64,000 bases of DNA from a virus (IMGVR_UViG_3300021376_000006); one strand, 5' to 3'. Shown: positions 33,909 to 38,560, counted from the stretch's first letter. The notes: generated by a model not told the origin, from the letters alone. A program made the numbers and translations.

Positions 33909-34493
33909 TTATGCCTTGTAGTCTAGATTACAATAAAATGTTATTTCCTCAATACAAGTATTTTGATTTAATTTTCCTGCATACTTTATAAAATCTGATA
34001 CATCTTGCAAATTTAAACCATTTCCAGTCCACGTTGGGCGATTTCTGCTTAGTTCTGTGTCTAACCGGTCTAATGTAATCAAAGTAGTTTTAAAAGCCAC
34101 TTTATTAGCCTTAAACGATGCTGTACATTGTTTACTTGCGTGTGTCAATGCTGCTTTGGCCACACGATATGTTTCAAATCCGGGCTCACGAGCCACAACA
34201 TGTTTTTCGCCTACGCTGCCAATGTTATAGATATGTCCTGCTTTGTGGTTTTTGCTCCATGCGTCGTATACTGCTTCTAACACATGCACTTGTCCAAAAT
34301 TAGCCCATGCTTCTTGTGGTGGACCATCAAAGGCATTGTTTACAAACACGTCATAATCCAAACTCAATTTGGCTATATATTCGTGATCTTGTGTAATATC
34401 AACGCCGTCTATACGACTAATGCTAACGCCGTTAAACTCTTCAACTAGATGTTTTCCTAATCCTCGATTACCACCTGTTACTAACACTTTCAT
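33909..34493 (-). CDS. Short-chain dehydrogenase/reductase
   Basis: VLVTGGNRGLG (TGxxxGxG), VNNA, NIGS and YRVAK (YxxxK). Confidence 0.85.
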   Translation of the reverse strand: MKVLVTGGNRGLGKHLVEEFNGVSISRIDGVDITQDHEYIAKLSLDYDVFVNNAFDGPPQEAWANFGQVHVLEAVYDAWSKNHKAGHIYNIGSVGEKHVVAREPGFETYRVAKAALTHASKQCTASFKANKVAFKTTLITLDRLDTELSRNRPTWTGNGLNLQDVSDFIKYAGKLNQNTCIEEITFYCNLDYKA

Positions 34494-35605
34494 CTAATGG
34501 ATCCTCCTTGATCCCAAACTTTGGTAAATTTTTCTCCGCATGTCATCGCACATTCCATAATTCTATTAGAATCAGACCAACTGTCAACCAAGTCGCGCCA
34601 AAAATAAGATTGAAATATCTTTTGTAAACTGTGATGTTTTATATCCAATTGGTCTTTATAATTTTCTATAAATTCTTTTACTTGTATTTTTCCTGTGTTA
34701 GTAAAACTGGCACTATTGGCACCTGGTTTTGCAAACGAATGAAATCTTGCGTCGTACATGTTGTGTTCAAAAAAGTTACATGGAAGTACAAGCCCTTCGG
34801 CAGTAATCACAACTTTGTTACCTAATAAGGCATCACATTTGATTGGTGTTTGTTGTAAATAGTCTTTAAAAGTCCCATACATTTGTTTGATAACTTCTAT
34901 TTTTTGTACACTGGGATTACGCCATTCAGAATTATTTGGTTCTTCTAGCAAGTATTCTGTATGACCATGCCTGTCCAGTACTGGCCAATTGGGGTATGCA
35001 CATTCGTTGGCATGATCGTAAAAACGGCCAGTCTTTTTTGGTAAAAAATTAAAGAATCCGTATTCTTTACTCAATTGTCTTGCTTGTTCAACTTGATGTT
35101 CGTTATGTTTAAAAACTATAAAGTTCCATTGCGCTCGACCGCCCTTGCGAATAAATGCTCTAGCATTACGTATAGCAATAGAGTATTTTACATTACGTCT
35201 ATAGATGTGTAAAGTGTCCTCTAGTCCATCAAAGCCAAAATCAATTTGACCATAACCGTTCATGATGGTCGCTATTTCTTCCCAATAGCTTTCGTCATGC
35301 ACACCACCATTGGTGTGAACGTATAACCATACTGTTGGATTTTTAGTTCTAAAATCTTGAAGAATGTCTAAGAAGTCAGGATGCATGACAGGATCGCCAT
35401 AACTCCCGCAAAAAAATATTTGCTTTAATTGACTACAATGGTCAACGCTGAAGGCAGCATCAATTACTTCTCTATCTAAATGTATCAACGGCATGTAAGG
35501 ATTAAGTCCTGATCCTTGTACGTTTCTTGGACATTGGGGGCAGGCAGCATTACAATAAGTTGTAATTTCCAATTGATATTCTTTAATTTTTTTATAATCA
35601 AACAT
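34490..35605 (-). CDS. Radical SAM enzyme with SPASM/twitch-like C-terminus
   Basis: YCNAACPQC (CxxxCxxC), GSYGDP, HTNGG; C-terminal C..ITAEGLVLPC and C..TC. Confidence 0.9.
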   Translation of the reverse strand: MFDYKKIKEYQLEITTYCNAACPQCPRNVQGSGLNPYMPLIHLDREVIDAAFSVDHCSQLKQIFFCGSYGDPVMHPDFLDILQDFRTKNPTVWLYVHTNGGVHDESYWEEIATIMNGYGQIDFGFDGLEDTLHIYRRNVKYSIAIRNARAFIRKGGRAQWNFIVFKHNEHQVEQARQLSKEYGFFNFLPKKTGRFYDHANECAYPNWPVLDRHGHTEYLLEEPNNSEWRNPSVQKIEVIKQMYGTFKDYLQQTPIKCDALLGNKVVITAEGLVLPCNFFEHNMYDARFHSFAKPGANSASFTNTGKIQVKEFIENYKDQLDIKHHSLQKIFQSYFWRDLVDSWSDSNRIMECAMTCGEKFTKVWDQGGSIR

Positions 35606-36113
35606 CAGGTAAATCTTTAAAAAAGTTTTTGGCCACCTCTAAGGTGTCACTGTTTGTTTTAAATATAGTTCCGGCTAACTTTGGACCCGGTTTTCTTAAA
35701 TCAATTAACCAAGCTGCTGCTGGAGTAGCAAATTCAAATTTCCAAGCACCGTTGTGACCCAGGTACAAATTGGGACAAATAAAGTAAGGCTCATGCTCGG
35801 CCTTGTGCATATAAACTGGAAAGAACTTGCCATTCCAAAGTTCAGACTCTAGCTTTATACAATCAAGTTTAATACCTTTAATTTCAACATGCCTATCTAT
35901 AACAATATTACCGTATGGATCATGCACATGGTGTTCCGGCGATTTTCCGTAGTGAATTACAGTCAAATCGTGACCACCGTCAACTAAATCTACGTCAAAA
36001 TCATAATAATCCTGGGCTGGCCCATCGTCCAAAGTCAAATAATCGTCAACAACTATTTTTATCATTGGGTTTCCTAAGCGCCGTTCTACATTAAGATCTA
36101 TTTCCAGCCTCAA
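35598..36113 (-). CDS. Hypothetical protein coupled to the radical SAM genes
   Basis: 171 aa, overlaps both neighbours; beta-rich. Confidence 0.65.
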   Translation of the reverse strand: MRLEIDLNVERRLGNPMIKIVVDDYLTLDDGPAQDYYDFDVDLVDGGHDLTVIHYGKSPEHHVHDPYGNIVIDRHVEIKGIKLDCIKLESELWNGKFFPVYMHKAEHEPYFICPNLYLGHNGAWKFEFATPAAAWLIDLRKPGPKLAGTIFKTNSDTLEVAKNFFKDLPDV

Positions 36114-37615: not shown

Positions 37616-37917
37616 GGAATTGATTTTGTAGTCAAAAGATCATCGGTACAATTTGTGCATCTTTCAAGTCTACAAGTTGTAGGTTGATCTAACAATTTAA
37701 AATCCTCAAATAGAACACCTAAAAAATCATTTTCGCATTGGGCACCGTAAACATTAAGTTTGCTGTCAATCAAGATATAATCTAATCCAGCGTTACATTT
37801 CCAGCCTTGCCAATAATCAAGCTGTTCACTATGTAATCTATTAGAATACATTAAATATTCGTTGCCTTTTTCGTCGCGAACAACTACATTATAATTATAA
37901 TCAATTAATTGCTGCAT
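37612..37917 (-). CDS. Stand-alone SPASM/twitch-like Cys-rich protein
   Basis: WKCNAG..IDS..NVYGAQC.N..LG...C...CTNCTDDL; ATG at 37917. Confidence 0.65.
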   Translation of the reverse strand: MQQLIDYNYNVVVRDEKGNEYLMYSNRLHSEQLDYWQGWKCNAGLDYILIDSKLNVYGAQCENDFLGVLFEDFKLLDQPTTCRLERCTNCTDDLLTTKSIP

Positions 37918-38560
37918 AGTTGTCAAAATCAAAAAGATTCAAATTATTGTTTGTTTTTGCCTTATCTCTTATACGTAAAGTCCAATCAATTTCTGAAATT
38001 GAAAAATTTATATTGTGTTGATTTAAAAATTTTTTGTAAATTTCAATGCGATCTTTATGCCAAGGTTCATTCATTATGTTAACATGCACTGTTTTATTAA
38101 GTCCTGTAATGGCATTTTTAGCACACAACACATTATTAAAAAATTTGTTTTCATTTAAAAATTCGCTATGTGTAGAAAAACTTATCCAATCTAAATATTC
38201 TAATAGATCCAAATATAATTTTTGGTTAGCAGTGCCATTAGTAACTATTCCTATCAATGCCAACTTATCTCTATATGAGGTTACAAGCCACTGTATAAAA
38301 GGCAACAGGTCTTGATTTATGGTTACTTCACCTCCGGTTAAACTTATTTTATATTTTAAGTTTCTGTGCTTGGTTTTATCATAAATTTCAAACCAACATT
38401 GTTTTAACTCATTCAAAGTCTTAGTTTCTGAGGTCAAACTGTGCCACTTTTCAGGACAATACATACAATCAAAATTGCATCTATCATGCAGGTGCCATGC
38501 CACTATAATATTACGATCTACAGGTGACACACTTACTATAGGTATTGATTTGTAGCTCAT
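37901..38560 (-). CDS. Radical SAM core domain protein
   Basis: DRCNFDCMYC, SLTGGEVT, VTNGT and FSTHSE motifs. Confidence 0.88.
   Translation of the reverse strand: MSYKSIPIVSVSPVDRNIIVAWHLHDRCNFDCMYCPEKWHSLTSETKTLNELKQCWFEIYDKTKHRNLKYKISLTGGEVTINQDLLPFIQWLVTSYRDKLALIGIVTNGTANQKLYLDLLEYLDWISFSTHSEFLNENKFFNNVLCAKNAITGLNKTVHVNIMNEPWHKDRIEIYKKFLNQHNINFSISEIDWTLRIRDKAKTNNNLNLFDFDNYAAIN

Follow-up and report, generated by a model that had tools for sequence, protein, structure and literature searches.

We find that the interval between gp46 and a SegE-like GIY-YIG endonuclease gene in the viral DNA stretch IMGVR_UViG_3300021376_000006 (64,000 nucleotides, analysed over its whole length and called the window here) is a hypervariable accessory slot of freshwater T4-like jumbo phages, carrying self-contained two- and three-gene modules of putative tailoring enzymes. 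Six open reading frames, A to F, fill positions 33909-38560 of the window, all on the minus strand. A and B form a split radical S-adenosylmethionine (SAM) enzyme, C is a putative B12-type radical SAM protein followed by a predicted beta-sandwich partner, D, and E is a radical SAM enzyme followed by a short-chain dehydrogenase/reductase (SDR), F. An earlier note on this DNA had described six translationally coupled genes that looked like one biosynthetic pathway, co-expressed with replication and recombination genes. The coupled genes are there as described; the single pathway is not. The cassette is real, widely conserved and phage-specific, and its modules are interchangeable rather than the parts of a fixed six-gene pathway.

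The window encodes a T4-type portal, a prohead protease, a baseplate protein, gp46 and gp47, and its closest cultured gp46 belongs to PA5oct-like jumbo phages (49% identity). Matching DNA comes from many lake-water metagenomes; all of the sequencing runs listed for it are DNA runs, with no RNA run among them. A near-identical D also lies on a contig of 337,915 bases. The comparison rests on about 150 related phage contigs or loci, collected by scans seeded with C or D (87 loci) and by a scan seeded with E, in which 408 stretches matched in IMG/VR and 80 were kept and read. All 87 of the C- or D-seeded loci have the order gp46, C, D, then either E and F or an alternative module of two pyridoxal phosphate (PLP)-like genes around a D-like gene (D′), and then the GIY-YIG gene. 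Many of the 80 E-seeded loci lack C-D and have the order gp46, E, F, GIY-YIG; in these, E overlaps the stop codon of gp46. One locus (L091) has solely the PLP-like module, directly after gp46. Because loci with E-F alone and with the PLP-like module alone exist, we reject one linear six-gene pathway; the minority occurrence of A-B, either before C or after F, and the uncoupled divergence of C-D and E-F likewise speak against the single pathway of the earlier note. The same note had allowed that the genes might prove scattered in relatives without co-occurrence, and what we observe is a fixed gene order across these loci.

Pairing within modules is strict. D always lies directly after C, F follows E wherever the contig extends past E, and in one locus (L006, 10014-11795, on a 344-kb phage contig) E and F form one protein of 593 amino acids (aa). 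Separately, the ESM Atlas contains a cluster of viral proteins of about 575 aa, near E by features, that may be an E-F fusion. Among fetched loci whose contig reached far enough, C-D was never found lacking both E-F and the PLP-like module. Within each pair, identity to the window protein co-varies strongly (r 0.95 for C with D, r 0.74 for E with F); the co-variation is weaker for C and E (r 0.43), and E and F follow gp47 (r 0.88). Since one reference serves for all identities and the loci are mutually related, these values describe linkage and are no independent statistical test. E-F is the commonest module of the slot and, in our reading, would be its basal one, with C-D and A-B as add-ons that move as pairs.

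The slot takes other fillings as well. The aminotransferase-like module, which takes the place of E-F (L007, 10023-12569; likewise L080-L087 and L091), consists of two class I/II aminotransferase-like paralogues flanking D′; both paralogues are viral, share 27% identity with each other and each carry an SLSKTFPV-type lysine motif. Further fillings include paralogues of C (C2, a second B12 radical SAM) and of E (E2); L142 is a locus with an extra radical SAM paralogue. Between gp46 and E, two loci (L118, 4277-5995; L154, 4214-6005) have a block of three coupled genes of about 160, 170 and 255 aa that gave no family match.

E is a radical SAM enzyme with a predicted twitch-type auxiliary cluster. 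Its motif CNAACPQC is invariant in relatives and starts at residue 18, and Pfam PF04055 (Radical_SAM) matches it at 40.7 bits against a cut-off of 29.5. Five further Cys residues are invariant (Cys66, 257, 276, 352 and 356). The earlier note had called B SPASM-like and E a radical SAM-SPASM enzyme, a label that did not hold: a SPASM domain has seven Cys in the pattern CX9-15GX4C ... CX2CX5CX3C ... C and binds two auxiliary clusters, whereas B and the C-terminal part of E have four conserved Cys each and neither protein is matched by Pfam SPASM. E keeps CX13GX4C (Cys257, Cys276) and then only Cys352-x3-Cys356, and because there are four C-terminal Cys rather than seven, its C-terminal domain appears twitch-like, with a single auxiliary cluster. 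Since the motif begins so near the N-terminus, there is no N-terminal RiPP recognition element (RRE; RiPP, ribosomally synthesized and post-translationally modified peptide) or other peptide-recognition domain. Against NCBIfam, E scores below every cut-off (best 58.9 against 380; MoaA 16.9 against 231).

The AlphaFold2 (AF2) model of E (mean predicted local distance difference test, pLDDT, 89.8) has a radical SAM fold, and its entire length can be superposed on BlsE, MoaA, SkfB and BtrN (Z 15-19). By VIA-align the Z scores are 18.9 for SuiB, 18.6 for SkfB, 18.2 for BlsE, 17.7 for MoaA, 17.6 for anSME, 16.4 for DesII, 15.3 for BtrN and 15.1 for viperin, while AprD4 (6fd2_A) reaches 8.2 at rank 44 and OxsB 7.2. 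The top Foldseek match is BlsE, a nucleoside-sugar decarboxylase (1.7e-10). As neighbours that act on peptides and neighbours that act on sugars score about equally, the fold of E does not by itself decide the substrate class. Clusters related to E are virus-labelled, and the only cultured relative with readable context is in the pelagiphage Mosig, at 28% identity over half of E. That locus (L166; Pelagibacter phage Mosig, MT647606.1, 57449-68006) contains three radical SAM genes annotated as MoaA, one of them split like A-B, together with genes for an ArnB-type aminotransferase, a carbamoyltransferase, a methyltransferase, an Asp_Arg_Hydrox protein, a desaturase-like protein and nitroreductases.

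F is a shortened classical SDR, with 194 aa against the usual 250 or so; it lacks some 40-50 residues that the N-terminal half of an SDR normally has. Pfam adh_short matches it at 27.9 bits (cut-off 26.6), aligned over residues 66-149 only. TGGNRGLG, NNAF, Ser93, Tyr109-x3-Lys113 and Arg27 are invariant in 15 relatives, and the invariant Arg27 after the first strand suggests that the cofactor is probably NADP(H). The three CxxxCxxC motifs and the YxxxK of the SDR that the earlier note had listed as intact are indeed present, in A, C, E and F, and invariant in relatives.

C carries the motif CVRNCTFC, invariant in relatives, and matches PF04055 at 66.9 bits (cut-off 29.5). Its best NCBIfam matches are all B12-binding radical SAM families, far under their cut-offs (the top one, the PhpK family, at 68.7 against 600), and its best PDB match is 9CCB, a glutamine C-methyltransferase (QCMT; E 2.6e-8, core only). 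The N-terminal domain has the motifs GGQG and GEAE conserved at the expected places. The B12-binding model PF02310 matches 7 of 25 family members (best E 1.8e-5) and misses C of the window itself, so that the earlier description of C as B12-binding rests on its family and not on the window protein. We regard C as a class-B-like, putatively cobalamin-dependent radical SAM enzyme, a label taken from the family. As no Cys is conserved in the N-terminal domain, we rejected a MiaB/RimO-type methylthiotransferase. Clusters related to C are virus-labelled, and the literature searched yielded nothing relevant on phage enzymes of the B12 radical SAM kind.

D gave no match in Pfam, NCBIfam, PHROG or PDB sequences. 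Its AF2 model (pLDDT 86.3) is a beta-sandwich followed by C-terminal helices, and it superposes on 2xhh_A, a carbohydrate-binding module (CBM) of the CBM36/60 type, with a VIA-align Z of 10.2 and a root-mean-square deviation of 3.7 over 112 of the 119 residues of 2xhh_A. The next-best fold in an exhaustive structural comparison has a Z of 5.5. Foldseek gives CBM36/60 a probability of 1.00 (E 2.7e-3), the ESM Atlas fold rows for D include CBM60 proteins, and the labelled structural matches of D are viral. D ends in an invariant LPDV tail, modelled with low confidence, that is absent from D′ and from distant D-like proteins. A complex of C and D was predicted with an interface score (ipSAE) of 0.50 against 0.00 for the best control, at least 52% of contacts shared between runs and a partner pLDDT of at least 77; on the scale of the tool, such a result counts as weak support, the ipSAE mark being reached by 58 of 80 solved complexes and by 2 of 110 mismatched pairs. 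Because the two genes are strictly adjacent and co-vary, we think that C and D work together, with D most plausibly a docking or substrate-presenting subunit.

The family of D is very large. When 1.84 billion representative proteins were searched with a profile, 1,483 clusters fell in the D-like superfamily at E ≤ 0.001, and Asp73 and Asp84 are invariant across it. Members are mostly stand-alone proteins of 140-210 aa, were seen on phage contigs only, and lie repeatedly next to enzymes. A D-like gene precedes each second B12 paralogue C2, with one possible exception, and D′ sits between the two aminotransferase-like genes. Distant D-like genes follow B12-binding radical SAM genes at unrelated positions in other giant phages; one locus (L095, 1104-5612) reads D-like, Asp_Arg_Hydrox-like, D-like, Asp_Arg_Hydrox-like, B12 radical SAM, D-like, and D-like domains are also found fused to a hydroxylase-like domain. 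In three more loci (L096, 2300-5101; L097, 4035-6397; L098, 4079-8102) a D-like gene lies between a GT-A-like gene and a cytidylyltransferase gene; one of these loci has the cytidylyltransferase fused to a methyltransferase, and another has it fused to a dCMP-deaminase domain. One metagenome contig of 2.2 kb encodes a protein (P0205, 289 aa) in which an RmlD-like N-terminal part, of the dTDP-4-dehydrorhamnose reductase type, is followed by the final 125 residues of a D homologue; either a natural fusion or a chimera of the assembly could explain it. The broad D-like alignment was too divergent to seed a contig scan, and a single-protein contig scan with another protein, P0260, gave no match.

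A consists of a radical SAM core alone and has no C-terminal domain. Its motif CNFDCMYC is invariant in relatives, and Pfam Radical_SAM scores 29.4 bits, just under the cut-off of 29.5. Its scores against named families are all low: 59.5 against 180 bits for viperin (NF038283), covering only model positions 2-117 of 281, 54.8 bits for pVip of PADLOC (positions 2-103 of 257), and in NCBIfam 37 against 284 for MoaA, 35.4 against 131 for NrdG and 28 against 260 for QueE. As the earlier note had said, the cassette is not the QueCDE/FolE set; none of its genes is closely orthologous to MoaA or NrdG, as that note had allowed they might be, or to QueE or viperin. B gave no match in Pfam, NCBIfam or PHROG; Cys41, Cys82 and Cys87 are invariant, with a fourth Cys near position 62, and B may be a stand-alone twitch-like domain with a predicted single auxiliary cluster. 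B was found next to A only, and A is always followed by B. Down to about 40% identity the two remain separate genes, each in its own reading frame, so the split is real. Longer fused forms of A were not found, in a search that left out the "near" length range where an A+B fusion of about 320 aa would fall.

What the modules might do together is suggested by several indirect lines. We consider it possible, at somewhat less than an even chance, that the slot modules carry out stepwise tailoring of a sugar-type substrate. E would abstract a hydrogen from a secondary-alcohol (carbinol) carbon of such a substrate, its second Fe-S cluster accepting the electron, and would give a keto or dehydrated intermediate. 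F would reduce this intermediate with NADPH, for a net epimerisation or deoxygenation by BtrN-type or AprD4/AprD3 logic. D, being CBM-like, would hold C on the substrate, and C would add a cobalamin-dependent radical step. C-methylation, the commonest reaction of cobalamin-dependent radical SAM enzymes, would be the likeliest such step; A-B may contribute one more radical step. Candidate substrates are a nucleotide-sugar, a nucleoside or a sugar already on a polymer. A sugar is favoured because the fold of D resembles CBM36/60, because distant D-like genes have glycosyltransferase-like and cytidylyltransferase neighbours, because the split E relative of Mosig shares its cluster with genes for an ArnB-type sugar aminotransferase and for a carbamoyltransferase, because BlsE tops the Foldseek list for E, and because E has no peptide-recognition domain. 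The earlier note had offered DNA-base, sugar and virion-protein modification as targets, and among the three, sugar chemistry has the most indirect support.

Several observations weigh against a shared sugar substrate. Fold likeness alone does not prove that D binds sugar, and Pfam CBM60 does not match it. The neighbours of E are tied between enzymes of peptides (SuiB, SkfB, anSME, PqqE) and of sugars or nucleotides (BlsE, MoaA, DesII, BtrN), and AprD4 itself is a poor structural match to E. C of the window is missed by the B12-binding model, the GT-A-like (Anp1/GT21) matches beside distant D-like genes fall under the Pfam cut-off (26 against 28.8 bits), and Pfam and NCBIfam find no glycosyltransferase, nucleotidyltransferase or kinase within the cassette. 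Since the modules occur alone, they may also act independently and not as steps of one route.

Other explanations account for parts of the same evidence, and some of them partly overlap with tailoring of a sugar. Post-replicative hypermodification of DNA, in which a base or a DNA-attached sugar is decorated, D-like proteins dock the enzymes and slot variants evade restriction, would suit the joining of the cassette to gp47-gp46 by overlapping codons and the lack of a T4-type late promoter box, gp47 and gp46 of T4 being early or middle DNA-metabolism genes. The swapping of modules between close relatives also fits an arms race, and PLP-type and radical SAM enzymes reportedly act in thymidine hypermodification (Lee et al. 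2018). We nevertheless think hypermodification unlikely: the slot has no DNA-binding, transferase, kinase or hydroxymethylase gene, and nothing matches any DNA-modification family in Pfam, NCBIfam, PHROG or PADLOC. Thymidine hypermodification in particular was set aside, as the slot contains no kinase, transferase or hydroxymethylase gene. Soluble nucleotide or nucleoside analogues of a viperin- or oxetanocin-like kind, made for host takeover or counter-defence by dehydrating or rearranging a ribose that F then reduces, would overlap with sugar tailoring because ribose is a sugar. For the N-terminal half of A, viperin models give the best match, viperin has a Z of 15.1 to E, and the genes sit with DNA-metabolism genes. 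In the OxsB/OxsA system a B12 radical SAM enzyme works with an obligatory small partner and a carbonyl is reduced later, a pattern that C-D recalls. Yet A has no counterpart of the nucleotide-binding C-terminal part of viperin and scores a third of the cut-off, D is no HD-domain protein, OxsB is far from E (Z 7.2), and neither a kinase nor a phosphatase is present, so that we give such analogues little credence.

The one-to-one pairing of D-like genes with enzymes could instead mean a RiPP-like modification of protein, with D-like proteins or virion proteins as substrates of the adjoining enzyme. Asp_Arg_Hydrox relatives and QCMT (9CCB), the nearest solved relative of C, act on proteins; SuiB, SkfB and anSME rank at the top of the structural neighbours of E, and D has its invariant LPDV tail, which is modelled with low confidence. 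This too is improbable in our judgement, as E has no leader-recognition domain, proteins are seldom the substrates of aminotransferase-like enzymes or SDRs, E-F is found alone without a D-like gene, the LPDV tail is not kept in D′ or distant D-like proteins, and the fusions of D-like and hydroxylase-like domains suit a docking domain better than a substrate. The overlapping genes leave no room for a precursor peptide gene, and E has no RRE. The genes might, finally, share no substrate, being unrelated accessory genes gathered at a hotspot of recombination next to a homing-type endonuclease. Each module does occur without the others, unrelated fillings exist (the three-gene block of L118 and L154, the extra radical SAM paralogue of L142), and the SegE-like endonuclease always flanks the slot. 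But C-D is never seen without E-F or the PLP-like module among the fetched loci that reach far enough, all modules come from the same few superfamilies of tailoring enzymes, and all are translationally coupled in one direction; we hold mere accumulation to be quite unlikely.

Returning to sugar tailoring, a bolder version can be drawn, which we offer as a long shot. D-like proteins would be a new and very large group of CBM-like docking subunits on phage contigs that bring cytoplasmic tailoring enzymes (B12 radical SAM, aminotransferase-, hydroxylase- and glycosyltransferase-like) to a polymer that carries sugars, such as glycosylated phage DNA. Exchange of modules at the gp46-segE slot would in that case vary the chemistry of the polymer in response to host defence, and E-F would be a radical SAM plus reductase deoxygenation or epimerisation new to viruses.

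Coordinates of the six cassette genes and of the two genes that border them in the window.
Feature	Coordinates	Strand	Description
gp46 (Rad50/SbcC-like)	38557-40326	minus	SMC_N and AAA_23 (Pfam); fixed upstream border
A	37901-38560	minus	219 aa; radical SAM core; first half of accessory module A-B
B	37612-37932	minus	106 aa from TTG; Cys-rich; second half of A-B
C	36110-37615	minus	501 aa; class-B-like (B12-domain type) radical SAM
D	35598-36113	minus	171 aa, TTG start; beta-sandwich partner of C
E	34490-35605	minus	371 aa; radical SAM with twitch-like C-terminal domain
F	33909-34493	minus	194 aa; shortened classical SDR
SegE-like GIY-YIG endonuclease	33473-33898	minus	PF19835, 117 bits; fixed downstream border

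The junctions, read from the sequence, agree with the coupling that the earlier note had described. ATGA joins gp46 to A, where the gp46 stop overlaps the start of A, and also joins B to C and E to F; TTGA joins C to D. A and B overlap by 17 nucleotides (32 if B starts at TTG), and an ATG at 37917, giving 101 aa, is the more likely start of B. D and E overlap by 8 nucleotides, ATGTTTGA, and a gap of 10 nucleotides separates F from the GIY-YIG gene. Promoter and terminator scans of the cassette were at chance level, and the T4-type late promoter box TATAAATA is absent within it. From the gene overlap we infer that the cassette would be co-expressed with the replication genes.

The GIY-YIG gene lies constantly downstream of the variable slot in nearly all relatives that reach that far. 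Seg endonucleases of T4 promote exchange of neighbouring DNA, and by analogy the SegE-like enzyme may promote exchange of the adjoining modules. A DUF6071 protein (40305-41033) between gp47 and gp46, and a 339-aa protein without a family (32457-33476) after the GIY-YIG gene, are present in some relatives only and at differing places, and are further mobile fillings around the recombination genes. L012, L013 and L024 are among the relatives with 1.5-2.3 kb of extra DNA between gp47 and gp46, the gp46 match of L156 (1847-5143) comes in two pieces about 1.5 kb apart, and gp46 has 693 aa in some relatives against 589 aa.

The cassette was not found in cultured phages: megablast with the region as query gave no match among 50,697 phage records, and tblastn with C, D and one distant D-like protein against cultured phages gave nothing useful. 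PDB sequence and profile searches with D, E, F and the PLP-like protein gave no match or generic matches, and a narrow E profile lost the radical SAM matches in the PDB and returned chance proteasome matches instead.

Radical SAM enzymes catalyse chemically difficult reactions and, to our knowledge, almost nothing is known of the hundreds of radical SAM families that seem confined to phages. E-F, with two genes and sometimes one, and C-D are small and self-contained enough to be cloned and assayed as they are. Related lake phages that differ only in their modules are a natural experiment for tying a module to a change in metabolite, DNA or glycan. The function of D-like proteins, once found, would annotate a large block of viral proteins (about 1,500 clusters) at once.

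Each enzyme of the cassette falls in a known superfamily and none in a characterised family. The nearest parallel to E-F in logic is AprD4/AprD3, a radical SAM diol dehydratase with an NADPH-dependent reductase partner that carries out the C3′-deoxygenation of apramycin (PMC5461906). E-F is likewise an adjacent pair of a radical SAM enzyme and an NAD(P)H-type reductase, even fused in L006. It differs in that E has a Z of only 8.2 to AprD4 against 17.6-18.9 for its top matches, F is a truncated SDR of 194 aa and no aminoglycoside context surrounds E-F, so that the likeness is one of logic and not of family. With the twitch and SPASM enzymes (BlsE, BtrN, DesII, MoaA; SuiB, SkfB, anSME, PqqE), E shares a partial triosephosphate isomerase (TIM) barrel and a C-terminal domain with a Cys-ligated auxiliary cluster, predicted in the case of E (Z 15-19), but at 12-18% identity, without an N-terminal peptide-recognition domain and with four auxiliary Cys rather than seven.

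Like the class B radical SAM enzymes (QCMT 9CCB, TokK, the PhpK family and OxsB), C has a putative N-terminal Rossmann-like domain with a GEAE-type motif ahead of the core, although it scores far under their cut-offs (68.7 against 600 for the PhpK family). As with OxsB and OxsA, an obligatory small partner is encoded alongside, but that partner is a beta-sandwich and not an HD-domain hydrolase. The beta-sandwich of D superposes on the calcium-dependent carbohydrate-binding modules CBM36/CBM60 (2XHH, 2XFD) with a Z of 10.2. Known CBMs belong to secreted glycoside hydrolases, whereas D, at 12-15% identity, is cytoplasmic and stand-alone, with two or three extra C-terminal helices. The Mosig cluster (MT647606.1) shows the same enzyme superfamilies in a T4-like phage, including a split radical SAM enzyme related to E, at another genomic position than the gp46-segE slot and with 28% identity over half of E. 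Against these known systems, neither the D-like family nor the combination of a class-B-like radical SAM enzyme and a CBM-like partner appears to have been described in the literature searched.

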